64,000 bases of DNA from positions 3,845,287 to 3,909,286 of the forward strand of contig OZ253447.1 of assembly GCA_965261115.1 (NCBI GenBank), in the 5' to 3' direction. The notes below the pieces were generated by a model. The model did no database searches, was not told where the DNA came from, and saw only the letters and a list, made by a program, of their open reading frames with translations. Shown here in pieces: positions 14,753 to 57,542 of the stretch; the first letter of the stretch is position 1; each line of letters opens with the position of its first letter. The translations under genes and the position numbers were made by a program. This stretch comes from Candidatus Poribacteria bacterium (GTDB lineage: Bacteria > Poribacteria > WGA-4E > WGA-3G).

Positions 14753-15031
14753 ACCTAAATAAGGGGTGCCGAAGAACGGATCAGTCCGGTGTTAATGACG
14801 GCTACCGCTGCTCGTCTTGCCGGTTTTGTATTACATCGTCGAATTAAGTTGGGTAGCGAGTTTTCAACGTAGAAGTGAAAATCGTAAATTATGTGATACT
14901 TCGTAAACTTTTTTGCAGTGCTGAACGTTTACGTTTTTAGGCAGTCAAATTCACATTGTAAAACTTAGGATTTTGACTTTTTCTAAAATTATGCACCCTT
15001 TTTATTGCGAGATCGCGTCATTAATGGTTAC

Positions 15032-15280: not shown

Positions 15281-16027
15281 ATGAAGAAAATGAAACGTGC
15301 ACATTTCTATTGGCTCACTTTTCTGGTGGTCCTTCTACTTGTCGGAATCAGCATGGTGAGCATGGCTGAAGAACCTGTCGTCTTGAGAATAGAGATTTCC
15401 GATGTTGTGAGCAATGCCGATGCGTTGCAGATTCGACGATTGTTGAAACCGTGGGCAGATCCAAAGGATATTACGTTCAGCACACCTGTTGACAAGCACG
15501 GTAGGAAGCGACTTTTCACCACCGTTGTGGAAGTCAAGCCGAGACATGGCGTTAATGAATATAGTGAGACGCATACGTTTGATGTCTATGACATCATGAA
15601 ACAGCTTAATGATTCGCGCTTTCGGGGTCGCCACGGGATCGGGGGTGCTCGTGTCCTCAAAACTGAGGCGACTATTCGCGGTCACATGTTTGCACATCCG
15701 GGTTTCTCGCGGAGTTATATCCGAAACGTTCCGTCGTGGCGACGCTGGCGACCTGACACCTCTAATATCCAGCATGCATTCACCACAGGGAATCCGGGAC
15801 AGAAATTCGTTTTCGATGCGAATCCTGAATTCGATCAACTTCGGACAGATGCCGGAAATAGCGGTAAACCGGTTGAAATCCAAGGTGTCGTCACTGGATT
15901 TGATGGTCCCTATCCGATTATATCGGTACGTAAGTCTGAGGTGGGCTACCATCTCAGGAACAATGCATCTGAAGAAGAAGAGGAAACCAAGGAAAAGCCG
16001 ACTTACGACTATCTTGAAGATCGGTAG
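15281..16027 (+). CDS. hypothetical exported protein
   Basis: N-terminal TM/signal segment (FYWLTFLVVLLLVGISMVSMA) and an acidic C-terminal tail. No recognisable catalytic motif. The start may be the second ATG at 15290, which has better SD spacing. Confidence 0.5.
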   Translation: MKKMKRAHFYWLTFLVVLLLVGISMVSMAEEPVVLRIEISDVVSNADALQIRRLLKPWADPKDITFSTPVDKHGRKRLFTTVVEVKPRHGVNEYSETHTFDVYDIMKQLNDSRFRGRHGIGGARVLKTEATIRGHMFAHPGFSRSYIRNVPSWRRWRPDTSNIQHAFTTGNPGQKFVFDANPEFDQLRTDAGNSGKPVEIQGVVTGFDGPYPIISVRKSEVGYHLRNNASEEEEETKEKPTYDYLEDR

Positions 16028-26604: not shown

Positions 26605-27948
26605 ATGAACACATCAAAACAGTTTTCACGTCGAACATTTCTACAGGGTTTAGGCGTTACCATTGCGCTACCGTGGTTGGAAGTGATGGGACCTGTGACA
26701 TCGTGGGCAGCAACGCCGACAAGTGCAACGCAGACAGTTCCGAATCGGATGGCGTTCCTCTATGTGCCGAACGGAAAGATTATGGAGGATTGGACGCCGA
26801 AACAGGTAGGTGCTGGCTATGAACTCACAGAGATCCTGAAACCGTTAGAGCGTGTGAAGGACAAAACATTGGTACTCAGCGGTTTAACTGCTGATAAGGC
26901 GCGCGCAAACGGTGACGGCGGTGGCGATCATGCCCGTGCAATGGCAGCCTTTCTTACAGGCGCGCAACCCCGTAAAACCGACGGTTCCGATATTCACGCC
27001 GGAATTTCCGTTGACCAAGCAGCCGCGTCACATATCGGTCAGCAAACTCGCCTCCCGTCGTTGGAACTCGGCATTGATCCGGGGTACAGATCAGGAAATT
27101 GCGATTCCGGTTATAGTTGCGTCTACTCTGCAACGTTGTCGTGGCGTTCCGCGACGCAGCCGCTCCCGAAAGAGGTTAATCCGAAACTCGCCTTTGAACG
27201 GCTGTTCTCCACTATGCCGGATGCTCAGCGGGAGCAACGCGATCAACAACGAAAAAGTATCCTCGATTTTGTCGTGCAAGACTCAAAAGATTTGATCCGT
27301 CAAGTCAGTGGAAACGATGTACGTAAACTCGATGAGTACTTCTCCGCTATCCGTGACATCGAACTAAGAATTGACGCGGCTGAAAAATTCCCGCCAATCG
27401 AAAGTCCCGATTACACCGCACCGGAAGAGATTCCTAAAGATTTCCAAGAACATGTCCGACTCATGATGGACCTGATTGTCCTTGCGTTCCAGACAGATGT
27501 GACCCGTGTTGTGACTTTTACGTTAGCAAATGAAGGCAGTAATAAGTCGTATCCGGCTATCAATGTTACTGATGGACACCATAACTTGTCGCATCACCAG
27601 GGTGACGAGGAGAAGGTGGCAAAAATCCGCAAAATTGACATCTTCCATACACAACAGTTGGCATACTTCTTGGAAAAACTGGATGCAACCGCTGAAGCGG
27701 ACGGCTCCCTACTCGACCATTCAATGATCTTGTATGGCAGTGGAAACGCAGACGGCAACCGACACAGCCACCATGATCTCCCGATACTGCTTGCAGGCAA
27801 CGGTTGTGGCACGCTTAAAAGTGGTCGCCATATCCGTTACCCGAAAGAGACACCGCTCAACAATCTCTGGCTGTCAATGCTCAACCGCATGGATGTCGGT
27901 TTGGCAAAATTAGGCGATAGCACCGGCAGTTTGCCAGACCTTTCCTAA
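26605..27948 (+). CDS. DUF1552 domain protein with Tat signal
   Basis: SRRTFLQGLG twin-arginine signal. The body motifs match my recollection of the DUF1552 family of PVC bacteria: FLYVPNG, LSGL, HA.A...FLTG, PSLELG, H..LSHH, ILYGS...DGN.H.H.DLP.LLAG. Confidence 0.78.
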   Translation: MNTSKQFSRRTFLQGLGVTIALPWLEVMGPVTSWAATPTSATQTVPNRMAFLYVPNGKIMEDWTPKQVGAGYELTEILKPLERVKDKTLVLSGLTADKARANGDGGGDHARAMAAFLTGAQPRKTDGSDIHAGISVDQAAASHIGQQTRLPSLELGIDPGYRSGNCDSGYSCVYSATLSWRSATQPLPKEVNPKLAFERLFSTMPDAQREQRDQQRKSILDFVVQDSKDLIRQVSGNDVRKLDEYFSAIRDIELRIDAAEKFPPIESPDYTAPEEIPKDFQEHVRLMMDLIVLAFQTDVTRVVTFTLANEGSNKSYPAINVTDGHHNLSHHQGDEEKVAKIRKIDIFHTQQLAYFLEKLDATAEADGSLLDHSMILYGSGNADGNRHSHHDLPILLAGNGCGTLKSGRHIRYPKETPLNNLWLSMLNRMDVGLAKLGDSTGSLPDLS

Positions 27949-32811: not shown

Positions 32812-33661
32812 AGGGCGGAGTCGCATCTTTCGCGAGCCGGAATCCGATAAAACTGGTGCCGATTGCGGGGTGTTGACCGAACCGTGTGGCACACCTTGCG
32901 AATGTCTCTGGGTTTAACCACGAACCGCCTTTCACAATACGGTGACTACCGACCGCGGGTCCCTTTGGATTTCGATCAGGACTACGGTAGTAGAAGGTTT
33001 CTGAATACCAGTCTGCTACCCATTCCCAGACATTACCTGCCATATCGTGTGCACCGTAAGGACTGATCCCCGTGGGGTAAGTGCCAACCGGTTGCAAATG
33101 TGCCCCTGACTGTTGCCAAACGTTTGCGTGGATAGTGGTATCCTTAATGCGTTGTGTGAAGGTGTTTCCCCAGGGCCACCGTTTAGCGTTCGTTCCACGT
33201 GCGGCTTTTTCCCATTCTGCTTCGGTGGGCAGCCGCATGCCTCGCCACGCCGCATAGGCAACAGCCGCATCCCACGAAATACCGATGACAGGATGGTTAG
33301 GCTTTGTTTTTGCAATCTCGGGCCAGATACCGAATTCGCCACCGTAACTGATGGGGGTATGTTCACTATCGGTGCCACCGCTTTCAAGCCAAAACGGATA
33401 ATACTCGGCGTTGGTGACTTCAGTTTTACTGATATAGTAGGCATCCAGATAGATTTTGTGTGCGGGTGCTTCATTCGGGAGGTTATCATCACTCCCCATC
33501 GTAAAGGTGCCAGCGGGGATGAGGCAGAGCTCAGGTTCAGCCAATGCACAAGGTAAGCCCGCTATAACTGCGGAAAGTAGGATGAGGCACCTTATAAACG
33601 GGTAGGCACGAAGACCTACCCTTGTGATGGTGTTATTTTTTCTTTGACGTAAGACGCTCAT
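32801..33661 (-). CDS. formylglycine-generating-enzyme (FGE/SUMF1) domain protein
   Basis: IPAGTFTMGS, HPV.GISW.DA.AYA.W.G.RLPTEAEWEKAARG, GN.WEW..DWY and RI.KGGSW are FGE-sulfatase domain hallmarks. A signal peptide is present. Confidence 0.8.
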   Translation of the reverse strand: MSVLRQRKNNTITRVGLRAYPFIRCLILLSAVIAGLPCALAEPELCLIPAGTFTMGSDDNLPNEAPAHKIYLDAYYISKTEVTNAEYYPFWLESGGTDSEHTPISYGGEFGIWPEIAKTKPNHPVIGISWDAAVAYAAWRGMRLPTEAEWEKAARGTNAKRWPWGNTFTQRIKDTTIHANVWQQSGAHLQPVGTYPTGISPYGAHDMAGNVWEWVADWYSETFYYRSPDRNPKGPAVGSHRIVKGGSWLNPETFARCATRFGQHPAIGTSFIGFRLAKDATPPYEK

Positions 33662-34835
33662 ATTCTTGATAGATTTTCGCGGCTTCTGTATGAGCACCGG
33701 CAAGCTCGTAAGCCTTAGAAAGGTTTAGATAGAAACGCGGTTCAGTTGGTTGTAAGTGGATGGCGGTTTGGTATTGCTCAATTGCTTCAACATAATCTTC
33801 TAACATCAGATAAACCCCGCCGAGGCTGTTACGGTAGGTAGCGACATTCGGCTTATGTGCAATCACCTTTTCATACATTGTTTTCGCCTGTGGATAGTTT
33901 TGCCGTTGAAACTGGACATAGCCGAGTGCTTCATAACCGCGCGTCTCTTGTGGTGCAAGCGTGACGTAACGTTCCAAAGATTGCGTTGCCTCCTGCCATA
34001 ACTTCCGTTTCAGTTGGAGTCTACCGAGTCGGTACCACGCTTCTGCGTTGGTAGGGTTTTGTTGCGCAAATTTTTTGAGATGTGTCAGCTTTTCTTCCTC
34101 AATAGACAGCACTTCAAAACGTTGTAAATTCTCCTGTGCCGCTTTCATTTCACCCATACGACGGTACGTTGTGCCTAAACTGAAGTACGCCTTTGCGTGG
34201 AATGGATCAATTTCAATCAGTTTTTTTAAAGTATCAATAGCGGATTGCCACGCTTCCTTCTGAAGAAAAGCAGTGCCGAGCGTGTAATGTGCTGTCTTCA
34301 AAGTCGGATCGAGTTTAATAGCGCGTTGAAGTTCACTGATGGCAGCATCGGTTCGATTATCACGAAAATAGGCGATGCCTAATAGGGTCCTCGCACGCGC
34401 ATGATCGGCGTCCATTGTAATTGCCTTCTGTAGCACCTGTGTCGCCTGTGCGGAGTCGCCTAAGTGGATGAGTAGTATATCACCAAGTTCACAATACGCT
34501 TCAATATAGTTTTTATCTGCGATTGTTGCCCGTTGAAACGCCTCAGCTGCGGCATGGACTTCCTCGGCACCTTTATAAATCATTCCCAAAACGCAGTGTG
34601 CATCCGCTATTGATCCATCAAGTTTGACCGCCTTCTCTAAATTAGTTCTCGCTTTTTTCTCGTCTCCATGTGTGAGCGCGCGGACCCCTGCGTCATACAA
34701 CCGTGCCGCTTCGGGATGAAACCGTGGCGCGCCAACCGCAAGGAGTGTGTGAAGGAATATAAGAAGTGTGAAGGTGTATTTAAATAGTTGCATACGGCTC
34801 AATGGCATAACCGACACAGCGCGTTGAGGCATCAA
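33633..34835 (-). CDS. TPR repeat protein (exported)
   Basis: About 9-10 tandem 34-aa TPR units (A...Y..G......G....A...F.KAI.LDP). N-terminal hydrophobic signal. Confidence 0.8.
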   Translation of the reverse strand: MMPQRAVSVMPLSRMQLFKYTFTLLIFLHTLLAVGAPRFHPEAARLYDAGVRALTHGDEKKARTNLEKAVKLDGSIADAHCVLGMIYKGAEEVHAAAEAFQRATIADKNYIEAYCELGDILLIHLGDSAQATQVLQKAITMDADHARARTLLGIAYFRDNRTDAAISELQRAIKLDPTLKTAHYTLGTAFLQKEAWQSAIDTLKKLIEIDPFHAKAYFSLGTTYRRMGEMKAAQENLQRFEVLSIEEEKLTHLKKFAQQNPTNAEAWYRLGRLQLKRKLWQEATQSLERYVTLAPQETRGYEALGYVQFQRQNYPQAKTMYEKVIAHKPNVATYRNSLGGVYLMLEDYVEAIEQYQTAIHLQPTEPRFYLNLSKAYELAGAHTEAAKIYQEYERLTSKKK

Positions 34836-35029
34836 TTTGGCTCTATTTTATTCTAAGATACGCGCAATGTCAAGCGGAATCTATGAAAGTAAGCAGGAAA
34901 GAAGGTGTTGAAAAAACGTTGCGGATTTGATAAGTTGATAACGCATGAGATGTCCTCCTAAGTATAATCTAACGTGTAGTGCCTCCTTGATGACTTTGAT
35001 AAATATTTGTGAGATTATTTTTCCGCTTA

Positions 35030-35038
35030 TCGCGTCAC
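35030..35038 (+). promoter_or_regulatory. conserved TCGCGTCAC box in the leader of the sigma-fusion gene (possible ECF-type -10 CGTC)
   Basis: An identical 9-mer lies at 40930-40938, at similar distances (48 and 45 nt) from the two paralogous ATGs. The leaders are alignable from this box to the ATG (shared ATGTGAAATA). Confidence 0.3.
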
Positions 35039-35085
35039 TATATGTTGATGTGAAATAATGAACATTCCCTTTTCAGAGGTATCCG

Positions 35086-38055
35086 ATGAAAAACGATGAT
35101 GCTCAGCTTATCCAACGCGTGCTTGATGGTGATGATACGGCGTTCTCCACACTCGTGAAAAAATATCAGCGATCCGTTCACGCGCTGGCGTGGCGGAAGA
35201 TCGGCGATTTCCATATCGCTGAGGATATTACACAAGAGACGTTCCTGAAAGCGTATCAGAGACTCTCTACACTGAAGGAACCACAGTCCTTTGCGAGTTG
35301 GCTTTATGTGATAACCGCACATCACTGCACAGCGTGGCACCGGAAAAATCGGACGTGGACGCAGTCGTTGGAAGACACGAGCAGCGCACACTTAGAAAAA
35401 GCGACGTATTCTGGATATGTCATTGCGGAGAATGAGCGAATGACAACGGAAGCACAACGCGAAGTCGTCAAAAAGTTGCTTGCGAAGTTGCAGGAGAGCG
35501 ATCGAACTGTCATCACGCTCTATTACCTTGGGGGAATGACGTACGAAGAGATCAGCGAGTTTTTAGGTGTGTCGGAGGCGGCGATTCGGAATCGTCTCTA
35601 CCGTGCACGTCGCCGTTTAAAGAAGGAGGAATCCATGATTAGAGAGGCTTTAGAACATTTCCAAATTACGCCAAATCTTACAAAGAATATCATGCGCGAG
35701 GTTTCGCGTCTGAAACCGGTTATTCCATCAGGCAGTAAATCGTTGGTGCCGTGGGCAATCGCCGTTTCCACAATAGTTGTAATATTTTTGATGTTAGGTG
35801 TCGGTAGTCAATATTTATCTCGTTTCCAGAAACCTTACAGTTTCGATGCTGTGTCAGAGATGACGATTGAACTCATTGAAGCCCCCGTCGTGCTAAACCT
35901 TGAATCCAAGCCAGATGTTCAGACGCAACTTGGAAGCACTGCTGTGTCCAGTATAAACGATGGGTTTGGTCAGCGACCTGATGAGATTTTACTTGCTGCT
36001 GCGCAGGTGGATGGAGAGGACGTTCCTATCTCGAAACAACAGTGGGTTCAGACGAACGAGCCTGGAGGCATAGTGGTAATGGCTTTGGCTGCTGTGCCTG
36101 AAGGCAATCTCTACACCGTTGATGGCATGGGTGATGTCTACAAATTATCAAACAATGAAAACGGATGGCAACGCATCTTCAACATTGGTTCACTGAATAC
36201 CCCTTGGGGTGGCAATCCGCCTATTGCGAAGTGGAACAATACCCTTTACCTCGTCCCGTCTAACGAACTTTTTGCTTCAACAGATGATGGCAAGACATGG
36301 AATTCACTATACGCTTGGCACGAAGGCTATAGATATCCGGTTGAATTGGTGCCGACAGATCAAGCATTTTATCTTGCTTTTGATAACGGTATTTTCCGTT
36401 CTGAGGATACCGGCAAGACATGGAAGCTAATGGACAATGGGTTGACGGGGAGAATTGAATCCTTCGTCAAGATCCAAAATACACTGTTTGCTGGAACAAG
36501 AACCGGACTCTACCGCTTAAACACTGACAACTGGCAACGCTTACAATTTCCGGTGTCTGAAGCCGAAACCATTCAATCGGTAGCGGCAACTCAAGAGAAA
36601 CTCTATGTTGCGGCACAGTTAGACTGGAGAAAACTGAGCAGAGATGATAGGCAGCAAATATCCGAAGGACAGAGACGCTCCTGGTGGATATTTCGTTCAA
36701 CTGACAAAGGAGATTCGTGGACAGATATAACCCCCACAGATGCTTGGACAATCCTTGGGTATCCACCACATATCATACTGATCGCTAAAGAAACAGTGCT
36801 CTTGGCAATAGGTATGAGTGACGGTGTCGTGGTTCGCTCAATTGATGGTGGGAATACATGGGTATACGAGGAGACTACCGGTATTTCTCCTACACGCTTC
36901 AGTGTAACGGAGGCTGTAGCATTCAACGAAAGCACTTTTTATGCAGCAGGAAACCGCGGTATTTATCGCTCTACCAATGGTGGCGTATCGTGGCACCGGT
37001 TTAATAGAAAGATGAAGAGTCGGGTTGATAACCTTATCACATTCAGAGAAACTGACAACGGACAGGGTACATCTGCAGCACTTTACGCGAGGGTCAACGG
37101 AGAGTTAGTTAAAACCACCGACTACGGTCATTCTTGGAAAACCGTTCAGGTGAAAATACCGATGAAAGCGCCTCACAGAGAAGATCCACCGCTTATTGAC
37201 GAAATAGTATCGTCTGGTGATGCGCTTTATGCAAAGGGTAAGGTTCCTTTTGAAGAAGTGCGCCTGTATCGCGTCTCTACAAATAGCAATACACTCATAC
37301 GGATTCAAGAAGTACCGGTCTTTTACCCGCTGGGGTTAATGGATAAGGCGTTCATTGAGCAGCTCCAAGGGCGTCTTCATGGTGCGACCCAGTTTTTCAA
37401 GCAGTTGGCACAACCGAATCTCCAGTGGTCAGATGAACTCATACGCGGTGGCTTGCGTGGCGCGTTTGCTGTTAGCGACGATACGTTCTATATGGAATAC
37501 AATTATAAACTCTTCCGATGGAGGCCTGGTGAGGCAGAATGGTACGATACCGAAATGGAAGAAACCTCTGAAATCTCAAGGGATCAGATGATGCGCGGAT
37601 TTGAACTTGCGGTTTCAGGGAGCACTGTCTATGTTGGAAAACGCGATGGACACCTCGTTGTCTCGTTTGATAAAGGAAATAATTGGCTTGATCTCACACC
37701 AAGCCTGCCGTTTCCTGTTAAACATTTCAACGATATTATGTTTGCGGGTTCCACAGTATATGTGGCAACCGACGCAGGCGTTATGACCTCAGATAATGGA
37801 AAAAACTGGCGTGCGATCACCGATGCTACAGGAACGTCTCTCACCGTGGATCGATTGGCAGTTGATGGCACAAACATTTATGGTGTTTCCAAAACGGGTA
37901 TCTATCGGTTGCAAACGGATACCGGTTTGTGGGATCAAATTGCACCTGAGATACCAGAAGCATCGGATTCGGTGACTTCATTTGATATTGATGGAAATGT
38001 GTTGTATGTCGGAACTTATGGCAGCGGCATGTTTTACTTCAATCTTAGCCAATAG
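35086..38055 (+). CDS. ECF sigma factor fused via one TM helix to extracytoplasmic BNR/Asp-box beta-propeller domain(s)
   Basis: Residues 1-183 form a complete sigma70 region 2 plus region 4 (DDTAFSTLVKKYQRSVHALAWRKIGDFHIAEDITQETFLKAY; MTYEEISEFLGVSEAAIRNRLYRARRRLK). The TM helix is LVPWAIAVSTIVVIFLMLGVG. At least 8 S-x-D-x-G-x-(T/S)-W Asp-box repeats follow (STDDGKTW, SEDTGKTW, STDKGDSW, SIDGGNTW, STNGGVSW, TTDYGHSW, SFDKGNNW, SDNGKNW). Confidence 0.8.
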   Translation: MKNDDAQLIQRVLDGDDTAFSTLVKKYQRSVHALAWRKIGDFHIAEDITQETFLKAYQRLSTLKEPQSFASWLYVITAHHCTAWHRKNRTWTQSLEDTSSAHLEKATYSGYVIAENERMTTEAQREVVKKLLAKLQESDRTVITLYYLGGMTYEEISEFLGVSEAAIRNRLYRARRRLKKEESMIREALEHFQITPNLTKNIMREVSRLKPVIPSGSKSLVPWAIAVSTIVVIFLMLGVGSQYLSRFQKPYSFDAVSEMTIELIEAPVVLNLESKPDVQTQLGSTAVSSINDGFGQRPDEILLAAAQVDGEDVPISKQQWVQTNEPGGIVVMALAAVPEGNLYTVDGMGDVYKLSNNENGWQRIFNIGSLNTPWGGNPPIAKWNNTLYLVPSNELFASTDDGKTWNSLYAWHEGYRYPVELVPTDQAFYLAFDNGIFRSEDTGKTWKLMDNGLTGRIESFVKIQNTLFAGTRTGLYRLNTDNWQRLQFPVSEAETIQSVAATQEKLYVAAQLDWRKLSRDDRQQISEGQRRSWWIFRSTDKGDSWTDITPTDAWTILGYPPHIILIAKETVLLAIGMSDGVVVRSIDGGNTWVYEETTGISPTRFSVTEAVAFNESTFYAAGNRGIYRSTNGGVSWHRFNRKMKSRVDNLITFRETDNGQGTSAALYARVNGELVKTTDYGHSWKTVQVKIPMKAPHREDPPLIDEIVSSGDALYAKGKVPFEEVRLYRVSTNSNTLIRIQEVPVFYPLGLMDKAFIEQLQGRLHGATQFFKQLAQPNLQWSDELIRGGLRGAFAVSDDTFYMEYNYKLFRWRPGEAEWYDTEMEETSEISRDQMMRGFELAVSGSTVYVGKRDGHLVVSFDKGNNWLDLTPSLPFPVKHFNDIMFAGSTVYVATDAGVMTSDNGKNWRAITDATGTSLTVDRLAVDGTNIYGVSKTGIYRLQTDTGLWDQIAPEIPEASDSVTSFDIDGNVLYVGTYGSGMFYFNLSQ
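35623..35637 (+). promoter_or_regulatory. internal Shine-Dalgarno AAGGAGG + in-frame ATG (codon 184) at the sigma/tether junction
   Basis: AAGGAGG (35623-29), 5 nt, then ATG (35635-37), in frame. The same arrangement occurs at 41520-41534 and 38481-38495. Confidence 0.5.
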
Positions 38056-38291
38056 TAAAACAAATTGTAGGGAGGGGCTATTTGCGCCTTGCGAATGAAG
38101 TGCCTCCCTATTTTCCATTCATCCAATCACCCAATTAACTTCCCGACTCGATATTGAAGTTCGCATTCACTATCATCTTCAGATGATGTTCAAGTTTTCG
38201 CGCGGACGGAATCCACCGAATTGCCTCAAGAATAAGTTTCTCCTATAAACGGACTTCTTTCGGGGTCATTCAATTTTCAAATTGTCTGAAT

Positions 38292-38325
38292 CGCGGAGGA
38301 CGCGGAGGGCGCGGAGGACGCGGAT
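38292..38325. repeat. 9-bp tandem repeat (GCGGAGGAC x ~3.7)
   Basis: CGCGGAGGACGCGGAGGGCGCGGAGGACGCGGA was read directly. Intergenic. Confidence 0.85.
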
Positions 38326-38430
38326 TTTCGTGTTTAGGGATGCCAAAATCATAAGGGAATTTAGCTGTTTTCCAGAGAATTGAATGGCCCTGTACTTCTT
38401 TTCGGACGTATGCACTTTTGGTTGGGTTTA

Positions 38431-38439
38431 TGGTATAAT
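38431..38439 (+). promoter_or_regulatory. extended -10 promoter element (TGGTATAAT) for the sigma-less paralog
   Basis: TGnTATAAT match, 54 nt upstream of ATG 38493. Confidence 0.55.
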
Positions 38440-38480
38440 TCCATTAACAGATGAGATGCGTCTTTACCGTGTATGTCAGC

Positions 38481-38495
38481 AAGGAGGAACCCATG
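38481..38495 (+). promoter_or_regulatory. SD AAGGAGG + ATG start of the sigma-less paralog
   Basis: AAGGAGG, then AACCC, then ATG. This is identical to the internal site at 41520-41534. Confidence 0.7.
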
Positions 38496-40841
38496 ATTCG
38501 GAATGCTTTAGATAATTTTCAAATCACACCGAATCCCGGCAAGAACGTGATATATGAGATGCCGCGCGCCAAGTTTGCTGCTTCCTCTGATGGTAAACCG
38601 TTTGTGCGGTGGGTAATCACTGCTTTAGTGATGGTCGTGCTGCTGATCCAGACACATCGGGTTTTAGCCAACCCAGAGGACTACACCCGATGGGGTTTGC
38701 CTGAAGGTGCAAAAGCGCGGATCGGGAAAGGCACCTTCACTGATATGCAGTTGTCCAGCGATGGTACTCGCTTGGCGATTGCGAGTTCCGCGGGTGTATG
38801 GCTTTATGATGTTAGTACTGGTGATGAAATTGCGCTTATCACAGAGAATACGGATTTAATCGGATTGGTGGCATTTTCTCCTGACGGTGCAACACTTGCT
38901 ACTGCTGGTGGGGACAACGAATGTCGTATCTGGGATGTTGAAAGTCAGAAACTGCTACTAACATTCAAGCTACCTGATTATTGGATCCATACATTGACAT
39001 TCTTGGATGATGGAAGAACCCTTGTCGGTGAGGGATCGATTGACAAAGCTTCACACGATCTGATTGGTGGAGATCCTTGGAGATGGGATGTCCCTAAGGT
39101 CTGGATGTGGGATGTTTCCTCTGGAAAGCAGTTAGACACTTTCACCACCAAGTTACCGAGATTTAATCCGCTTAAAGATGCACGGACCAGTGTTAGGGTG
39201 AAGGCATTTGCGGATGGTACGCGTGTTATCTTTGCTTTTGAGAACAGAGACGGAACGATTAGTGTTAAAGATGGACGTACGAATCGCGAGATAGTTACAC
39301 TTCCAAAACCTGAGAGACAGGTAAGAGCGTTCAGTTTTACGCCAGATGGCAGAAGGCTTGCGGTTGCGACTTCCAGAAACGTACATCTCTGGGATCTTGT
39401 TGATACAGGAGAACAGTTGGCAACGTTTCCAAAAAGGGTCGCGGATTTCGAGGGGTATCCAGCGATACTTGCATTCTCAAAAGATGGAAAAACCCTTGCT
39501 GTTGCCGGGTTAGATGACATTGAGATATGGAATATGGATACATATTCGCAGGTTGCTACACTTGAAAATAAGAGTGGTGGTTTGTGGGAATTTGTGTTAT
39601 CGGCGGATGGTGCAACCGTTGTAACTATGAATCACCACGGCACAGTGGATTTATGGTCGGCACAGACCGGCAAACATGAACGTACCTTGACGACGGGATG
39701 GACCAGTAGGTTTTCCACGTTGGTGTTCTCGCACGATGGGAAAACGATTGCGAGCAGCACGGGTAGCAAAATCCATCTGTGGGATACAAACACTTGCACC
39801 GAAAGATTGCGGATGCAACTTCCCGGACGCGTTGAAGGTGTAAACAAACACATTGAACCGAATTTGCGAGCTGCTGTGCCCATGGTACGTGGGAGCGAAA
39901 TCGCCAGTTTAGCATTTTCTGAATATAACACGCCTCTTGCCGCTTCTGCATATAGTACCACCCTCGCCGTTTGTACCGTTTCCGACAAAGTTGAAATATG
40001 GGATGCCGCTACAGGAAAATATAATACTGATTACACGCTCCCGGGCAGACTTCGTAGGGTGCCGCATGGCCCATTGACTGATGATTTAGGTACTGTGCCA
40101 GTGCCGCGAACCCCGGCGATATACCATATCTACGCAACATCATTTGAGAGCACAGGGCATACCGTACATGCAGCCGCTTTCTCACCAAACAGTGAAAAAC
40201 TGGCTATTGAAATCCAGAATGGTGTGATGGAGATATGGGACATTCTTACCCAAAGACGCTTATGCACGCTCCCAGGTCAAGTCCCAAACTGGAGTGCGGC
40301 GTTCACGTTTACTTTCGCATTTACACAGGATGGTGAGGTGCTTGCAATCGGCAAAGGAACGGAGGTCCACTTGTCGAATACCGATACTGGCGAGACATTT
40401 GCTACATTCAGTGTTGCTAAGGAGAAACTGGATTTGATAGATAAATTACAAAAATTTCTCGGCTTGAAGCGTTTTGATGTGCCAGTGGGTGCTGTGGCAT
40501 TGGGACGAGCTGGGGAACCTCTCATCGTTGCTGCGAGTGCAGGTAAAACAATCTATTTATGGGATGTCGCGACCCGGAAATCTGTAATGCTTGAAGGGCA
40601 CACAAGTGAAGTCTGTAAATTAGCATTCGCGCCCAACGCGACTTTTCTGGCAAGTGGAGATATAGATGGCACAATTCACCTGTGGTTGCTACCTGCCGGA
40701 CACAAACTTGCCACCTTCAAGCCATACGTGAGCCCCGTTAAAGAATTGGTGTTTGCGCCTGATGGGAAAACCCTCGCAAGCACAAACCTGTATTCCCGCT
40801 TTGCTGGAACGATACTCCTATGGGACGTTCCACCTAAATAA
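38493..40841 (+). CDS. single-pass membrane WD40 beta-propeller protein (sigma-less paralog of the fusion proteins)
   Basis: It starts MIRNALDNFQITPN..., homologous to the tether MIREALEHFQITPNL of both fusions. The TM helix is FVRWVITALVMVVLLI. WD40-like blades follow (VAFSPDGATLATAGGDNECRIWDV; LAFAPNATFLASGDIDGTIHLW). Confidence 0.8.
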   Translation: MIRNALDNFQITPNPGKNVIYEMPRAKFAASSDGKPFVRWVITALVMVVLLIQTHRVLANPEDYTRWGLPEGAKARIGKGTFTDMQLSSDGTRLAIASSAGVWLYDVSTGDEIALITENTDLIGLVAFSPDGATLATAGGDNECRIWDVESQKLLLTFKLPDYWIHTLTFLDDGRTLVGEGSIDKASHDLIGGDPWRWDVPKVWMWDVSSGKQLDTFTTKLPRFNPLKDARTSVRVKAFADGTRVIFAFENRDGTISVKDGRTNREIVTLPKPERQVRAFSFTPDGRRLAVATSRNVHLWDLVDTGEQLATFPKRVADFEGYPAILAFSKDGKTLAVAGLDDIEIWNMDTYSQVATLENKSGGLWEFVLSADGATVVTMNHHGTVDLWSAQTGKHERTLTTGWTSRFSTLVFSHDGKTIASSTGSKIHLWDTNTCTERLRMQLPGRVEGVNKHIEPNLRAAVPMVRGSEIASLAFSEYNTPLAASAYSTTLAVCTVSDKVEIWDAATGKYNTDYTLPGRLRRVPHGPLTDDLGTVPVPRTPAIYHIYATSFESTGHTVHAAAFSPNSEKLAIEIQNGVMEIWDILTQRRLCTLPGQVPNWSAAFTFTFAFTQDGEVLAIGKGTEVHLSNTDTGETFATFSVAKEKLDLIDKLQKFLGLKRFDVPVGAVALGRAGEPLIVAASAGKTIYLWDVATRKSVMLEGHTSEVCKLAFAPNATFLASGDIDGTIHLWLLPAGHKLATFKPYVSPVKELVFAPDGKTLASTNLYSRFAGTILLWDVPPK

Positions 40842-40929
40842 GACCTTCACCTATAGACAATCATTATTTCGGTTCCTGAAACTTACTATTCAAGAAATTG
40901 CAGAATTCTGCAACCGTTTTCGCCCTAAG

Positions 40930-40938
40930 TCGCGTCAC
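40930..40938 (+). promoter_or_regulatory. conserved TCGCGTCAC box (second copy)
   Basis: As at 35030-35038. Here it is preceded by TGCAAC about 18 nt upstream, a loose ECF-like -35 AAC. Confidence 0.3.
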
Positions 40939-40982
40939 AAGGTATTAATGTGAAATACTAAAAACTCCTCTGGAGATATTCG

Positions 40983-43931
40983 ATGAGAAATGACGATACT
41001 CGACTGGTTCAATGTGTCCTTGAAGGCGATGATGCCGCTTTCGCTGAACTGGTGAAAAAGTACCAGCAGCCGGTTCACGCGCTTGTGTGGCGGAAGGTTG
41101 GAGATTTCCATGTCGCTGAGGAGATTACACAAGACACTTTCCTGAAAGCATACCAGAAACTGACGACACTCAAGGAGCCGCAGCGTTTTGCGAGTTGGCT
41201 TTATGTGATAGCCACAAACCGTTGTAAGGCATGGCTGCGTAGGAAGCGTTTATGGATGCAGTCGCTGGATGCCACAGGTGGCATGCAGTTGGAAAAGGCT
41301 ACATATTCTGGGTATGTCATTTCGGAGAACGAACGCGTAACAGCAGAATCACAGCGCGAAGTCGTCAAAAAGCTGCTCGCGAAGTTACAGGAGAGTGAGC
41401 GGACTGTCATGACACTCCACTATTTCGGGGAGATGACGTGTGAAGAGATTAGCAAGTTTTTGGGTGTATCGGTGGGTGCGATTAAGAGTCGCCTCAGCCG
41501 TGCGCGCCACCGCTTAAAGAAGGAGGAACCCATGATTCGCGAGGCTTTAGAACATTTCCAAATCACACCGAATCTTACAGAGAATATCATGCGCGAGATT
41601 TCGCGTCTGAAACCGGTTACCCCGTCAGGCGGTAAACCGCTCGTGCCGTGGGCAATCGGTGTTTCCACAATAGCAGTCGTCCTTTTGATGTTAGGTATCG
41701 GAAACCATCAATACCTGTCGCGTTTTCAAAAACCGTATAGTTTCGACGCACCATCAGAGATGGCAGTTGAACTCATTGAAGCACCGATTGTGCTGAACCT
41801 TGAAGCCAAACCGGATATTCGGACGCAGTTTGGAAGTGTCAATACACCGAGCGAGGGTGCTATTTCCAACCAGCAACCTAACGACGTTTCGGCATCGGTT
41901 GCAGACGCAGAATCAGATGAGACATCTGAAAACCACGCACATTGGAAGTTGCCCAAAGCGGCGAAAGCGCGCTTCGGAAAAGGTGGGATTACCACAATCC
42001 AGTTTTCGCCAGATGGCACCCTACTTGCAGTCGGTAGCAATATCGGGGTATGGCTGTATGATGTGGAAACAGGTGAAGAGAAATCTCTGTTTGGCAGCGG
42101 CGTGTGTGAAGCCCTCAGCTTTTCACCTGATGGCCGTTTCCTTACCGTTTCTTCTCGGGAGACGCTCATCCAATTGTGGGAGATTGCTACCGAGCGCGAA
42201 GTGCCGCTTATCGACTTGTACGGGGCTGCTTCCGTATTGCGATTCTCTTCGGATGGGAAAACGCTTATCGGTTTGAGTAGTTCCGGTGCAATTACCCGAT
42301 TGAATATTGAGAACGGGAAAGGGAAAACAAAACACCTCAAAACTGGATTATTCGGGATCGGTCTCTTTAGTTCGGAGGATTTTCAGGGTGTCTACGCGAT
42401 GACAAGCGATAAAATCGCGATTGGAAAAGCGGACGGGACGATCCAGTTATGGGACGTAGCAACCCGTAAAAAGTTATCAACGCTCAGAGGACACATAGAT
42501 TTGCCGCTGCAACCGTTGAATAAACCTGTGCATCGCATATTTAAAAATAATTGGGTCTTAGCAGTGGCGTTTTCGCCGGATGGCACGCGTCTCGCCAGTG
42601 GCAGCACAGATACGACAGTCCGATTGTGGGATACCACTGGTGACACGGATTGGATGACGCTGCAGAAACATACTGGACCGACAAATGTGCTGGCGTTTTC
42701 ACCCGATGGAAAAATGCTTGCCAGTGGCAGTACCGATAAAACAGTGCAATTGTGGGACACCACCACTGGCGACCCCCTCGCGACGCTCACTGGACATATC
42801 AACGGTATTACTGCGTTAGCATTTTCACCCGATGGTCGGACACTCGTCAGCGGGAGTACGGATGGCACAATCCGATTCTGGCAGACAGCGACTGGGGCTC
42901 CAGTGGATACCCTTATCACTGGGCACACACACTCCATAAAAGCGGCGACCTTCTTTGAGGATAGTTCCACACTTGTCAGCGCGGCGTTTAACGGTGAAAT
43001 TACCTTTTGGAATGTGGAAACATCGCAAAAGTCTACTGTCCAAAATAGTAGACATCGGGATTGGTATTCAGCAGTGGCGTTTTCGCCAGATGGCACGAAA
43101 CTCGTCAGTGCAGCGGCGGATGGTACTATAGCTTTCGGTAAGTTTCCTACTACTACAAAGCCAGATAATCTAATTCGGTTGACGGATGTATCGACTGGAG
43201 ACGAACTTGCGAGATTGCCGCGAGGCACCGAAAAACTCATCTTTTCTCCTGACGATAGAACTAAAACTGTAGCGATTACTAATCTTGACATTCGTTTGTG
43301 GAATACGGAAACAGGCGATGAATTGATAATTCCTGTTAATGATGACCTGAAACCCGGCTTTCGCGGCAATCTACCAATGATTTTGGCAGCGGCGTTTTCA
43401 CCGGATGGTAGATGGCTTGTGAGTGGCACTACAGAAGGCGACATCCGAATGTGGGACGTTGCGACCGGTGAAGTTTTGACTGTCTTTGCAGAACCGACAG
43501 AACAAGAGAATCTGGGGCATATTTCGGCAGTGGCGTTTTCACCGGACCGCGCCTTGCTCGCTGCTGGCACACACACGCAACTCCATTTATGGGATGTGCG
43601 TACCGGTCATAAAATTTTTTCGGTTAGTACTGTGCATAAACGCGGTTGGGGTATATACCATGATTATTCAAGACCGTTGGTGTTTTCGCCGGATGGCACA
43701 ATTCTTATCAATGGGCATAACAGCGGTACAATCCAGTTATGGGATGTTGAGACAGGAGATAGAATTGCTGTGCTTGATGGACATACACAGGAAGTGGAGA
43801 CGTTGAAATTTTCACCTGATGGGGAAACACTGGTTAGTACGGCGCAGGATGGCACAATTTTCTTGTGGGATTGGGATGAGGCTATCACCGGTTCGGCCAA
43901 CACCGACGAATATAAGGGGTTAAAGAAATAA
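40983..43931 (+). CDS. ECF sigma factor fused via one TM helix to extracytoplasmic WD40 beta-propellers
   Basis: Residues 1-183 are a complete ECF sigma, highly similar to 35086's. The TM helix is LVPWAIGVSTIAVVLLMLGIG. More than 12 WD40 repeats follow (AVAFSPDGTRLASGSTDTTVRLWD, VLAFSPDGKMLASGSTDKTVQLWD, ALAFSPDGRTLVSGSTDGTIRFWQ ...). Confidence 0.85.
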   Translation: MRNDDTRLVQCVLEGDDAAFAELVKKYQQPVHALVWRKVGDFHVAEEITQDTFLKAYQKLTTLKEPQRFASWLYVIATNRCKAWLRRKRLWMQSLDATGGMQLEKATYSGYVISENERVTAESQREVVKKLLAKLQESERTVMTLHYFGEMTCEEISKFLGVSVGAIKSRLSRARHRLKKEEPMIREALEHFQITPNLTENIMREISRLKPVTPSGGKPLVPWAIGVSTIAVVLLMLGIGNHQYLSRFQKPYSFDAPSEMAVELIEAPIVLNLEAKPDIRTQFGSVNTPSEGAISNQQPNDVSASVADAESDETSENHAHWKLPKAAKARFGKGGITTIQFSPDGTLLAVGSNIGVWLYDVETGEEKSLFGSGVCEALSFSPDGRFLTVSSRETLIQLWEIATEREVPLIDLYGAASVLRFSSDGKTLIGLSSSGAITRLNIENGKGKTKHLKTGLFGIGLFSSEDFQGVYAMTSDKIAIGKADGTIQLWDVATRKKLSTLRGHIDLPLQPLNKPVHRIFKNNWVLAVAFSPDGTRLASGSTDTTVRLWDTTGDTDWMTLQKHTGPTNVLAFSPDGKMLASGSTDKTVQLWDTTTGDPLATLTGHINGITALAFSPDGRTLVSGSTDGTIRFWQTATGAPVDTLITGHTHSIKAATFFEDSSTLVSAAFNGEITFWNVETSQKSTVQNSRHRDWYSAVAFSPDGTKLVSAAADGTIAFGKFPTTTKPDNLIRLTDVSTGDELARLPRGTEKLIFSPDDRTKTVAITNLDIRLWNTETGDELIIPVNDDLKPGFRGNLPMILAAAFSPDGRWLVSGTTEGDIRMWDVATGEVLTVFAEPTEQENLGHISAVAFSPDRALLAAGTHTQLHLWDVRTGHKIFSVSTVHKRGWGIYHDYSRPLVFSPDGTILINGHNSGTIQLWDVETGDRIAVLDGHTQEVETLKFSPDGETLVSTAQDGTIFLWDWDEAITGSANTDEYKGLKK
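41520..41534 (+). promoter_or_regulatory. internal SD AAGGAGG + in-frame ATG (codon 184)
   Basis: AAGGAGG (41520-26), AACCC, then ATG (41532-34). The offset from the gene start is 549 nt, exactly as in the 35086 gene. Confidence 0.5.
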
Positions 43932-43932
43932 A

Positions 43933-44754
43933 ATGAAACGATCATTTCTCTATGCCTTATTCATCGTTCTAACGCTTATCACGGGCGGATATGTAACCGC
44001 AGGTCTTGATAAAGGACTTGTCGTTTATTTCACGTTCGACAACGTCCTGGGTAAGCGGATTCTTGATGAATCTGGTAACGGACTTGATGCTGAAATTGTC
44101 AAAGAGACTCAATTTGTCAAGGGTAAATATGGGAACGCTGTCCATATTACTAATGATACTGAAGATTGTGTGAATGTACCTGCCGCCGATGAACTGGAAA
44201 TCAGTGAAGAGATCACAATGATGGCATGGGTATATCACGAGAATTGGAAGGGGAGCTCTTCACAGTGGTTTGATAAAGGGTGTTATAGTGCGAGATCCAA
44301 TAGTATATACGGTATGGGAGTTTTCGATGAAAATGATGATCCTGATCTCGGATTCCCTTCAGGCGTTGGGATTATTTTAGGGACGCGAGAATTTCATGTG
44401 CGAATCGTAATAAAGAAGGAAATGAGGAATGGAACGTGGCATCATATTGTCGGCGTATGTGAGGATCTCAACGTGAGAATGTATCTTGATGGTGAAAACA
44501 TTCATGAATCTAATCAAAGAGCACCTTTTAATTTTAATGGCATAAACGAGGAAGATTTGCGGATCGGATGTGCCAAAGGTAAGCCTGCGTATGCGTTTGC
44601 GGGAGGTTCTATTGACGAAGTCGCGATATGGAATCGTGCGCTTAGTGAAACCGAAATCAGGGCTGTGATGCGGGGTACCTTGTTCGCGGTTTCACCGAAG
44701 GATAAAATCGCTACAACATGGGGAAATATTAAGCGGAAAGCACTTCAACCGTAG
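43933..44754 (+). CDS. secreted LamG/concanavalin-A-like lectin domain protein
   Basis: Signal peptide. LVVYFTFDN...DESGNG.DA......FV.GKYGNA and the C-terminal SIDEVAIWNRALSETEI are typical of Laminin_G_3 domains. The ATG lies 1 nt after the stop of 40983..43931. Confidence 0.72.
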   Translation: MKRSFLYALFIVLTLITGGYVTAGLDKGLVVYFTFDNVLGKRILDESGNGLDAEIVKETQFVKGKYGNAVHITNDTEDCVNVPAADELEISEEITMMAWVYHENWKGSSSQWFDKGCYSARSNSIYGMGVFDENDDPDLGFPSGVGIILGTREFHVRIVIKKEMRNGTWHHIVGVCEDLNVRMYLDGENIHESNQRAPFNFNGINEEDLRIGCAKGKPAYAFAGGSIDEVAIWNRALSETEIRAVMRGTLFAVSPKDKIATTWGNIKRKALQP

Positions 44755-44793: not shown

Positions 44794-44898
44794 ATTACGT
44801 AGGACTTACGCATTTTTCCATGATAACGAACGTATGACGCACTGCAGGCGGGGTTTAAAACCCCGCCTGCGAGGGAGGCTGCGTGAGTCCTATTACGT
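44794..44898. mobile_element. 91-bp MITE-like element (44801-44891) with 7-bp target-site duplication
   Basis: TIRs AGGACTTACGCA (44801-12) and TGCGTGAGTCCT (44880-91) match at 11/12. They are flanked by a perfect direct repeat ATTACGT (44794-800 and 44892-98). Confidence 0.65.
44844..44870. terminator. GC-rich hairpin inside the MITE, between convergent genes
   Basis: GCAGGCGGGG-TTTAAAA-CCCCGCCTGC. The 10-bp stem is extendable by TTT/AAA. It sits between the LamG gene (+) and the 1256-aa gene (-). Confidence 0.6.
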
Positions 44899-47800
44899 TA
44901 AAGTTCCGCACTGACGGTCATCTCCAGACGGTGTTCGGGTTTTCGCTCTTTCGTTGAGAGTAGACGGTAATTGAGTCGCAGTAGTAGATCGGTGAATTTC
45001 CGTAATCTGTAGTCTGCTATCGTCCGGATTTCGTGGCTGATGCCTTCGTAGAACGTATATTGCGCGAAGGGTATGCCGCCACTGCTTTTGCCGTAGCCGA
45101 GTTTGTAGTTGAAATCAATGCGTCCCTTACCGATGAGACTGTAGGTGACGCGGCTCTCAAACGAAAAGGTGCGCGTTTTGGCTTCGGGTTCCTCGTCAAG
45201 TTGCTCCTCGTCGGTTGTCCGTTTATAGCCACTGATACCGCTCCATCGTAGGGTCTTACTCAACTGGTATCGGATATTTAGTTCAGTTATCTGCTCAAAC
45301 TGACGCAAGTCTGAGATAGGTGTCGGAGAAGGCTCTCTCATTTCCTTGGTAGGATCGGTTTCTTGTGCGAGGTCTTCAAAATCGAATTGGCTATATTTTT
45401 CGGTTTCCCGACGTTGTTCCCTGTTCGCGCCAACAGAGAGACGTTGGGTCGGATTCATAGAGAAGCCAACATCCCATGTGTTGTGGTGTCTGTGGCGTTC
45501 TTGGTTATTAATCCGCTTGTTGAGCGTCTCCCCTGCCCGGAAGTTAAGTTCAAAACTGAACGCCGTTGAGGGGACGAATTCGAGTCGATGGTGTTGGTTC
45601 ACTCGCCCGAAAACCGTATCTGAACCTTGTAGATTTTGGAGTAGATATAGCGAAACAGCATCTTCTACCTCCTGTTCCTCAGTCAGCCAGAGTCGTGTTT
45701 GACCTCTGAGCGCGTTCAGAAACCATTCCATCCGAGAAGGACGCACGCTTTGCTGTGATGCTGGCGGTGTTGGCCGTAAACTATCACCTTTCAACATCGC
45801 CTCTCGTTGCAGCTGTTGTTGCCGCGCCCGGTTGCGCCGTGCGAAAAACTGGCGGGGTTGAAAACGGAGGCGAAAATCCGCATCTACCGCCGTTGTTGGT
45901 TTATCACCGACGTGTTGGTGGATTTTGATGTAAGTGCCTTCTTCGGCATCCTCTACGTAGTGTAGATCGTCCAACTTCACGTAATATCCGTCCCCGGGTT
46001 GGAGCCGGACACCGGTATGTGGATGGATGTTGGTATAGACTTCGCGGCGTTGGCTTGTCAATTTTTTATCTAATTCGTAGGTGAGTTCTATGTCAATTGC
46101 CCGGCTTAGGGGTGTCAACTGAATATTAATATCTGCGAGTTGCGTCGTTGTATTCGCACCGAGATCGGTGTGTGCTTTGAGCGTCCGACGGGCGAGGTTT
46201 GCGGTCAGATTCATACCGCCGCTGAGAAAGGATTTCTGTTGTGAAAAGATGCCGACTTTCCATGTGCGTCCGGTCGTATTCCGTTGCCAATCCGATAAAC
46301 CGATCGGTTCGTCATCAACAGTGAGCAACGGCTCTTTGGCGTAAGCCTCCTCAAGTTCGTAGCTGGTATTCAGAGATGCCCAACTAAAATCAACGAGATT
46401 GATACGTCCAATTGCGCGGTTCCGCTTTCGGTTGAGCGTGGCATTACGCGCCTCGTTTGATTCCACCCTGCCCAATGTTCCCAAAATTCTGAACGGTCCG
46501 AGCGGATAAGCTAAGTTGCCTTCCTGCCGTAACTTCTGCTGCGATTGTGTCCGTGTTGAATCCTCATCCTCCACACGCGAACTACTCCGATAGTCATCCC
46601 AACGGAGATTCGGTAATTTCTGTAGGGGCGAGGTCACCTCGCCCCTACGGCCTTTAGACAGGTTTTGTTCCGATGCAGGGGTTGCTTTCTCTTGCCCACT
46701 GATGCGCGTGTTTCCGCGTCTGGTGGTAGCGGTTATACCTCCACTGCCTGACCGGCGATTGAAGTTCACACCCCAATTGAAATTATTGCGGATCGTTGCG
46801 TTTGTCGTTGGTGATGCTTCTGTTCCGTCCGCCAACCCCCCTTTATCCCCCCTTATCAGGGGGGTGGGTGGTTCTTTCTCTTCGCTTCTACCGATGCCAG
46901 CGTCAACCGCCAACCAATCTGTTGGAATCAGTTGGATGTCAAAGTTCGCAGTTCTCTCATCTCGTGCGGTTTGTGAAGGCGAGGTAACCTCGCCCCTACC
47001 AAACAGGAACGCGTCATCAAAACCCTCTTTGGTGTATTGCGTTTCATAACGGGAGCGATTCCGATTACTACTTGACGCACCGACAGGGACAAAGTCGGCG
47101 TCCATCGCTCGGATGTCGAGATTTGTGTTCAATTTAGGTCGCAGTTTATCTGTCCATGTCGCAAAGTCCCAATCCGCGTAACCGGTCAGTTTCCACGCCT
47201 GACTCACCTCTTTACGGTCTATGGTGGAATAGGTGTTCTTATCAAGATTGCTGTAGGCGAGTTCACCTTCGATCCACGCTTTTTCAGTAATGTTCACGCG
47301 GCTTTCTAACCCCCATACAGTATGTTTCTGGGGTGCTGTGAGCAGCGACCCATCTTCTTCGGGGTCAAGGATATTTTGACGGAGTGCCTCGATATCGGTC
47401 TCTTCAAGTATGATTAAAGCCTGTTCCGGTTCCTTCAGGTCTGCCTCAACGGCATAGGAAGCACCGAGTGTTATCCATTCTCCGTAGGGGCGAGGTAACC
47501 TCGCCCCTACACTGAGTCCATAGAGATTTTGTTGATATGCGCGATCTTCTGGGATGTATTCAAAGTCGATCCGAATTGTGTCGTTGCTTGTGATGAGGTG
47601 TTTGCTGTTGAACTCGACGATTGGGTCTCCATATTCTCGGATGATGTAATCGTTGTTTTCACCGCGCCGCATCCTTTCACCATTCAGCCAGACGATTTCA
47701 CTGCCTGCCTTTACGATGACGTATTGCCCATCGACGGTGAGCCGATATTCGCTCCGTCCTTCTTCGCCGCGAAGGACTAAGCTGGTAGACTGCCCTTTCG

Positions 47801-56168: not shown

Positions 56169-56255
56169 GGGTGTCTATAAGATGGACTTGAGAATAGTCC
56201 GATCTTTCGTTATTTTGTTAGGCGGGCAGTGCCTACACGGCATGCCCATCGTGTT

Positions 56256-57470: not shown

Positions 57471-57515
57471 ATTTTTAGATTCTTTAGATATTGTGTTTCT
57501 GCTGCGACTCACTGC

Positions 57516-57542
57516 ACCGAACCGCAAGGCACTTTAGAAAGA
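57516..57542 (-). repeat. dispersed motif copy D (minus orientation)
   Basis: The reverse complement reads TCTTTCTAAAGTGCCTTGCGGTTCGGT. The TAA is the stop codon of the histidine kinase. It lies between the HK and the response-regulator start. Confidence 0.8.

Follow-up and report, generated by a model that had tools for sequence, protein, structure and literature searches.

The stretch of DNA analysed here, which we refer to as the window, comprises 64,000 nt from Candidatus Poribacteria bacterium (GCA_965261115.1, contig OZ253447.1, positions 3,845,287-3,909,286 of the forward strand). It contains three neighbouring genes on the plus strand, g1, g2 and g3, of which g1 and g3 encode an extracytoplasmic function (ECF) sigma factor joined within one polypeptide to a membrane span and a large outer domain. 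The open reading frames (ORFs) of g1 (35086..38055, 989 amino acids) and g3 (40983..43931, 982 amino acids) were found as given in a preliminary description of this DNA. For g2, which ends at 40841, the longest ORF begins at 38451 and the best start is at 38493, behind an AAGGAGG.

The N-termini of g1 and g3 matched Sigma70_r2 (PF04542, residues 23-89) and Sigma70_r4_2 (PF08281, residues 127-178) above the Pfam cut-offs and scored 106 and 97 bits, respectively, with the sigma70-ECF model TIGR02937 (cut-off 42.9 bits). Both proteins therefore contain the intact regions 2 and 4 that had been reported for them and qualify as ECF (group 4) sigma-70 factors with sigma2, sigma4 and a passed ECF profile. 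No NCBIfam equivalog model reached its cut-off with the sigma part of g1 or g3; the top-scoring ones were of the SigW, RpoE and SigM types. The nearest PDB chains were SigW (2e-25, for g3), AlgU and RpoE, and all of these alignments stop at residues ~181-190. The sigma domain covers residues 1-183 in both proteins (g1, 35086..35634; g3, 40983..41531).

In g1 the sigma domain is followed by a tether (residues 184-218, 35635..35739) with two short amphipathic helices, MIREALEHFQ and LTKNIMREVSRLK (hydrophobic moment 0.67), by a transmembrane (TM) helix (residues 219-241, 35740..35808), by a juxtamembrane stalk (residues 242-285, 35809..35940) and by an ectodomain of BNR/Sortilin-Vps10-type beta-propellers (35941..38055; PF15902, PF14870 (PSII_BNR) and PF02012). 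The arrangement in g3 is the same: tether (184-218), TM helix (219-241) and stalk (242-287) are encoded by 41532..41843, and the ectodomain (41844..43931) consists of WD40 beta-propellers (PF00400 at 1.8e-81, seven stretches). Hydropathy analysis (Kyte-Doolittle, 19-residue window) revealed a single hydrophobic segment per protein, located at residues ~219-241 in g1 and g3 with a maximum of 2.2-2.4. The charge flanking this segment amounts to +2.5 on the N-terminal and +0.8 on the C-terminal side across the family, and this positive-inside bias therefore indicates an N-in/C-out topology. Thus, as the preliminary description had claimed, sigma factor, TM helix and extracytoplasmic sensor are part of one polypeptide, in which a two-helix tether and one TM helix connect the cytoplasmic ECF sigma factor in cis with a periplasmic stalk that carries a variable ectodomain.

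The two sigma-fused proteins are 64% identical over residues 1-345 and unrelated beyond. The product of g2 (38493..40841) is a sigma-less paralog with a diverged tether, a TM helix and WD40 propellers. It had been taken for the same protein minus the sigma part. The sigma part is indeed absent, 58 amino acids of tether and TM helix are like those of g1 (45% identity) and the WD40 part is distantly related to that of g3 (27% identity), but the conserved stalk is missing as well. Downstream of g1, a terminator-like hairpin was found (38067..38111, +; minimum free energy -25.3 kcal/mol, z = -3.3), and the spacer between g1 and g2 contains a tandem repeat of CGCGGAGGA (x3.7; 38292-38324, +).

Distribution and ectodomains of the fused family

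The genes had been described as a three-paralog family, a number far too small: a genome search with one genome per species returned at least 588 matching stretches, 560 of which were confirmed, so there are at least 560 confirmed relatives in Poribacteria genomes. The 78 loci kept for analysis (L-numbered in the following) all belong to Candidatus Poribacteria or to metagenome-assembled genomes (MAGs), closed chromosomes among them. They contain 128 family copies, and several genomes carry more than one copy, often in tandem. The family is large and confined to sponge- and coral-associated Poribacteria. From sigma domain through stalk, 115 of the 128 copies are encoded in a single frame, including copies on closed chromosomes, and the fusion is therefore not the product of a missed stop. 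The ortholog locus L001, which is 96% identical, is also in frame. Where the 3' end is complete (92 copies), 79 genes encode at least 870 amino acids, with a median near 980.

A protein search with tether, TM helix and stalk as query against 1.84 billion representative proteins revealed this module in only 253 clusters. Inspection of the best ~145 of these 253 yielded 99 with a full sigma domain and a module start at residues 183-187, 25 that were N-terminally truncated and 25 without sigma domain, many of the latter beginning exactly at MIRE.... The fusion is the conserved, dominant state of the family, which is an ECF sigma factor with a fused membrane-spanning, anti-sigma-like extension in one conserved ORF.

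Split copies are secondary. Of two that end at the joint between sigma domain and tether, L080 has an in-frame TAG and L079 a 2-nt insertion together with further frameshifts on a long-read contig of 7x coverage. Stand-alone or split ancestors were considered and rejected, as the short "sigma-only" proteins turned out to be frameshift fragments. Many "sigma factor" calls of Poribacteria (P0313-P0379 and others; 183-317 amino acids, with a recurrent length of 217) are fragments of ~1000-amino acid genes. They are likely the indel-error signature of long-read MAG assemblies, and such calls would inflate counts of stand-alone ECF sigma factors in Poribacteria.

The ectodomains, in turn, are exchanged within the family. 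Among 94 of them, ~61 were of the WD40 and ~20 of the BNR/Sortilin type, and smaller classes contained Big_5, a C-type lectin with CarboxypepD_reg, LamG with TPR, or nothing recognisable. The idea of interchangeable sensors is borne out by this series, in which a constant N-terminal module is joined to WD40, BNR, Big_5, C-type lectin or LamG plus TPR ectodomains.

Constraint, a putative internal start and a promoter-like motif

Module identity, omega (dN/dS) and codon statistics were determined with 112 distinct, aligned copies; the synonymous sites are saturated (dS above 1). Mean pairwise identity and omega amounted to 0.75 and 0.10 for sigma2, 0.73 and 0.10 for sigma4, 0.76 and 0.10 for the tether, 0.65 and 0.18 for the TM helix and 0.70 and 0.13 for the stalk, followed by 0.31 and 0.44 for the post-stalk part. 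The tether sequence hardly varies within the family (M184 I R E A L.. F Q I. P. L T. N I M. E.... K P), and its two short predicted helices are both significantly amphipathic. A flexible Pro/Gly-rich segment of ~10 residues, KPVTPSGGKP, connects helix 2 with the TM helix, in which P222, W223, S228 and G238 are strictly conserved.

The lineage of g2 served as a control. Its orthologs in L004, L014, L037 and L018 are located directly upstream of g3-type genes, and dN/dS is 0.20 overall and 0.18 in the propeller. Tether and TM helix, on the other hand, are relaxed (0.58), with a diverged helix 2, and no stalk is left. Since this relaxation and loss occurred in a lineage devoid of the sigma domain, the constraint on tether and stalk is tied to sigma, as would be expected if these segments regulate or release it. 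The tether is more likely a minimal anti-sigma factor acting in cis than a passive linker, because its omega equals that of the sigma domains and relaxes once sigma is lost. Apart from this, the syntenic pair of a sigma-less TM-WD40 gene and a sigma-fused WD40 gene is found in several Poribacteria genomes, and the two may work together.

At the joint, the reading frame contains a Shine-Dalgarno (SD) sequence followed by a start codon. The three-junction alignment gave AAG-AAG-GAG-GAA-yCC-ATG, with the SD sequence AAGGAGG and the ATG of Met184 at 35623..35637 (+) in g1 and at 41520..41534 (+) in g3. The identical stretch forms the start of g2, whose AAGGAGG is located at 38481-38487 and is preceded by ~25 nt that persist from the 3' end of the former sigma domain. 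Within 291 kb of family genes, the base for the SD statistics, 63 of 76 occurrences of AAGGAGG are at this joint. The codons at positions -4, -3 and -2 are extremes among the conserved K and E columns. AAG makes up 87% of the copies at K(-4), more than in any other of the 20 conserved K columns; GAG makes up 86% at E(-3), the maximum among 21 E columns; and GAA makes up 94% at E(-2), which corresponds to the lowest GAG fraction. Where Met184 is replaced (GTC, GTA, ATA, ATC, TTC or CTG), the GGAGG core is gone too, in 10 out of 10 copies, and among the ATG-bearing copies GGAGG is kept in 81 of 102 (co-loss of SD and ATG, Fisher 8e-7). An all-codon synonymous test based on the Kullback-Leibler divergence did not single out the junction codons, which scored 0.87, 0.71 and 0.40 with the 90th percentile at 1.14. 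It is thus the like-for-like comparison of K and E columns together with the co-loss of SD and ATG, and these alone, that support selection on the joint codons. Taken together, there is moderate evidence, drawn from codon usage and co-loss, that most members may also make a sigma-less isoform consisting of tether, TM helix and sensor.

A single bipartite promoter-like motif, TTGCAGAATTATGCAcCCGTTT-N13-GCGTCACTATA, is common to the family. Scored with a position weight matrix (PWM; highest score in shuffled windows 1.3), the motif reached more than 15 bits in 98 of the 112 upstream regions of family genes. Its distance to the start codon is fixed, with CGTCA ~53 or ~29 nt upstream, and 85 of the 89 strong matches in ~680 kb of flanking DNA of the loci are no more than 120 nt upstream of a family gene. 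Its CGTC box is similar to -10 elements of the ECF type. The motif before g3 (40897..40943, +; PWM 56.7) reads TTGCAGAATTCTGCAACCGTTT-N13-GCGTCAC; the one before g1 (34997..35043, +; PWM 12.0) has an intact GCGTCACTATA box and a degenerate upstream box. Before g2 the family motif is absent (PWM -31.7), and TGGTATAAT, an extended -10 element of the sigma-70 type, was found at 38431..38439 (+) and also upstream of the ortholog in L004. The upstream box before g3 (40897-40912), TTGCAGAATTCTGCAA, is a perfect 16-bp palindrome. Dyad symmetry of this box in the family extends over 9.9 of 16 positions versus 4.5 in shuffles, and 29 of 68 copies contain TGCA-N6-TGCA.

A third copy of the motif lies away from any family gene at 14980-15026 (+; PWM 32.5), ~255 nt upstream of an ORF (15281..16027) for a 248-amino acid protein without Pfam match, whose N-terminus resembles a signal peptide. 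The ORF is also preceded by a TGGTGTATAAT-like element of its own at ~15233. The site is possibly that of a regulon member or a relic promoter.

Comparison with known systems

A sigma factor fused to its own anti-sigma factor is a known design. The preliminary description had considered that the proteins might belong to an already characterised fused ECF group; fused ECF sigma factors with a described mechanism do exist (IutY/ECF243, ECF48/52/53 and ECF57), but the family lacks the features that were tested as defining for them, namely a FecR domain, a zinc-finger anti-sigma domain and two conserved cysteines. IutY of Pseudomonas putida (ECF243) is a sigma/anti-sigma hybrid that is activated by regulated proteolysis, by Prc and then RseP (PMC8999054). 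Like the proteins described here, it is one polypeptide with an N-terminal ECF sigma factor, one TM segment and a periplasmic sensor part. Unlike these, IutY is of the FecI/FecR type and works with a TonB-dependent receptor (PMC8999054), whereas the sigma factor of the family is SigW/RpoE-like, its cytoplasmic anti-sigma part comprises only ~35 amino acids and its ectodomains are propellers, lectins and Ig-like domains. A FecR domain was not among the Pfam matches of g1 and g3.

A similar architecture is that of Tt-RpoE1/Tt-TolB of Thermoanaerobacter tengcongensis, in which residues 1-39 of the anti-sigma factor, a TM/beta-propeller protein, suffice for binding of the sigma factor (PMC3397946). 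The view that a tether of ~35-40 amino acids is too short for an anti-sigma factor is contradicted by this example. Both systems have a short cytoplasmic segment, one membrane span and a beta-propeller, and the resemblance to Tt-TolB is one of architecture. A CGTC-type promoter at the own gene is a further common feature, as Tt-RpoE1 is autoregulated via tGTTAC-N16-CGTC (PMC3397946). The differences are that Tt-RpoE1 and Tt-TolB are encoded by two genes and the propeller is of the TolB type; here, a single ORF is present.

ECF57 (formerly ECF01-Gob) of Planctomycetes carries many WD40-like repeats in a long C-terminal extension and occurs in several copies per genome (PMC8999054; PMC7826278). 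In the family, WD40 repeats are found in g3 and in ~61 of the 94 ectodomains, but not in the BNR ectodomain of g1 or in the Big_5, lectin and LamG classes; the phylum is also a different one. ECF57 is defined by two conserved cysteines that link sigma2 and sigma4, but in the family only C81 is present in 100% of the copies; the other recurrent cysteine (position 153) is found in 39% and is absent from g1. The original description of ECF01-Gob reportedly also mentions a TM helix that follows sigma4.

The actinobacterial groups ECF48/52/53 (e.g. SCO4117) likewise consist of sigma and a membrane-spanning anti-sigma-like extension with an outside domain, in their case carbohydrate-binding, and proteolytic activation has been proposed for them (PMC8999054). 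Their anti-sigma domain is a zinc finger (ZAS, HxxxCxxC), but the 35-amino acid tether of the family has no Cys/His motif, no zf-HC2 and no Pfam match at E<=10. A class I anti-sigma domain (ASDI; four helices, ~80-90 amino acids) is not present either, as sigma4 and the TM helix are separated by only 35 amino acids with two predicted helices. The family is thus a variant set apart from IutY, ECF48/52/53 and ECF57 by those defining features that were tested. What distinguishes it is the phylum-wide expansion of the module, the candidate anti-sigma segment of 35 amino acids, the conserved stalk, the internal SD and ATG and the single shared promoter. A search of the available literature found no work that connects Poribacteria with ECF or anti-sigma factors; in the 2014 single-cell study of Poribacteria, the WD40 genes appear only among the eukaryote-like repeat proteins (PMC3909097).

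Proposed mechanism, alternatives and other genes of the window

We propose, with a probability of roughly 0.55, that the family is an autoregulated sigma/anti-sigma system in cis that is released by regulated proteolysis and probably accompanied by a sigma-less isoform. The anti-sigma function of the tether, the proteolytic release, the use of the internal start and the identity of the sigma factor that reads the promoter are inferred parts of this model. The tether would be a minimal anti-sigma factor that, together with membrane anchoring, holds sigma off RNA polymerase. Binding of a ligand to the ectodomain would lead to cleavage in or near the stalk, and this to an intramembrane cut by a site-2 protease that frees sigma, as for IutY. 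The freed sigma factor would then act on the ECF-type promoter before nearly every family member, resulting in positive autoregulation. From the internal SD and ATG, probably in most genes, a free sigma-less protein of tether, TM helix and sensor would be made, which has the form of a classical anti-sigma factor. In this way, a conserved internal start could set the sigma:anti-sigma stoichiometry inside a fused gene.

Several observations weigh against this proposal. Neither site-1 nor site-2 protease genes were found within the 64-kb window, and tether, TM helix and stalk had no match in Pfam (E<=10) or among PDB chains (E<=10). The putative contact of the tether with sigma was neither supported nor contradicted by AlphaFold2 models of residues 1-281 and 1-218 (alignments of 118 and 132 sequences), which were poor (pLDDT, the predicted local confidence, 65 and 58; pTM, the predicted template-modelling score, 0.45 and 0.38); Foldseek recovered from these models the separate sigma domains only, with a global root mean square deviation around 20 Å, and is uninformative on docking. 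As regards the internal start, 21 ATG-bearing copies have no strong SD, the co-loss of SD and ATG reflects only about four independent lineages and codon conservation is raised across the whole module. The putative -35 (TGCAAC/TGCACC) and CGTC are ~18 nt apart, close to the upper limit for an ECF promoter, and the symmetric upstream box may instead be an operator for a dimeric regulator.

The internal start is also the basis of a different reading, in which it yields an excess of the sigma-less isoform and the sigma domains, which hardly differ between paralogs, are controlled mainly in trans, also by g2-like genes, in a cross-regulating network in place of independent single-polypeptide devices. 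We consider this possible, albeit somewhat unlikely. It would account for the SD and ATG being kept at synonymous sites and lost together, for sigma-less genes that begin exactly at MIRE... and are under purifying selection, for the position of g2-type genes immediately before g3-type genes in several genomes and for one promoter motif and highly similar sigma2 and sigma4 domains in all paralogs. However, the relaxed tether (omega 0.58) and diverged helix 2 of the old g2 lineage weaken a role of g2 as anti-sigma factor in trans, the SD is missing in about a fifth of the ATG-bearing copies, and SD and ATG could be a relic of a two-gene ancestor. A wider view, which we put forward tentatively and hold to be rather doubtful, is that each gene is a unit with two outputs and that dozens of paralogs per genome, with near-identical DNA-recognition domains and one promoter, form a network of many sensors to one regulon with positive feedback and buffering in trans. 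If so, this network would have its input domains in many of the WD40 "eukaryote-like proteins" of Poribacteria, which would then not be factors of host mimicry.

It is improbable that the protein works at full length and without proteolysis, by recruitment of RNA polymerase as well as promoter DNA to the membrane, like membrane-bound activators of the ToxR/CadC type. This would agree with the lack of a protease gene nearby in the window and with the flexible KPVTPSGGKP segment before the TM helix, but with a length of only ~10 residues this segment would force the holoenzyme-bound sigma factor to the membrane face. Moreover, recognition by a processing machinery would better explain why the TM helix (P222, W223, S228, G238) and the stalk are so strictly conserved, and the sole characterised fused sigma/anti-sigma factor is released proteolytically (PMC8999054). 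Finally, the notion that a missed stop or frameshift masks ordinary separate sigma and anti-sigma genes, as an SD and ATG exactly at the joint, like in a two-gene operon, and the many short sigma-only gene calls in databases might suggest, is effectively refuted by the 115 of 128 independent in-frame copies, closed long-read chromosomes and the 96%-identical L001 included, by the nature of the short calls, which are frameshifted fragments whose tail is the tether read out of frame, and by the two split cases, a nonsense mutation and a 7x-coverage contig with several frameshifts.

Poribacteria are dominant, uncultured symbionts of sponges and corals, and the many WD40 and other repeat proteins they encode have up to now been interpreted as "eukaryote-like" factors of host interaction (PMC3909097). 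With the family described here, many of these repeat proteins are the outer halves of membrane-tethered sigma factors, which turns an observation on gene content into a testable signalling hypothesis. For ECF biology, the family provides a natural series in which a constant module of sigma, tether, TM helix and stalk is combined with many ectodomains. Proteolytic release of a sigma factor fused to its anti-sigma factor is already established, and the proposed mechanism is therefore an extension of this principle and no departure from it.

Directly downstream of g3, 2 nt past its stop codon, starts a gene for a secreted LamG (Laminin_G_3, Pfam) protein (43933..44754, +). Homologs of this gene (47-72% identity) follow family genes at 0-26 nt in L006, L049 and L051, where the ectodomain is a different one (Big_5-type), and at 159 nt in the ortholog locus L001; in L067 LamG is itself the fused ectodomain. 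The LamG gene is probably co-transcribed with g3, and its product is possibly an accessory protein or co-receptor.

Elsewhere in the window, a separate sigma-regulation system of the partner-switching type is encoded at 55422-59930 (-), comprising HATPase_c_2 (RsbW/SpoIIAB-like), a response-regulator-SpoIIE phosphatase and a dCache-HAMP histidine kinase. A protein of 735 amino acids (30685-32892, -) contains FG-GAP/VCBS repeats, ASPIC/UnbV and C-terminal ankyrin repeats; its neighbours are an FGE-sulfatase gene (32801-33703) and a TPR protein gene (33633-34835), which is typical repeat content of Poribacteria. For an ORF of 1256 amino acids (44898-48668, -), whose N-terminus resembles a signal peptide, Pfam gave no match at 1e-5. 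Scanning of the 64-kb window for Rfam families and tRNAs gave no match either. Planctomycete-type PSCyt/PSD genes (DUF1592/1588/1585/1587/1595) and DUF1552 genes at 19741-23465 and 26605-27948 (+) fit a gene content like that of the Planctomycetes-Verrucomicrobia-Chlamydiae group. A gene of the phage-integrase family (7403-8182, -; 259 amino acids, possibly truncated) adjoins unannotated ORFs and may mark the remnant of a mobile element.

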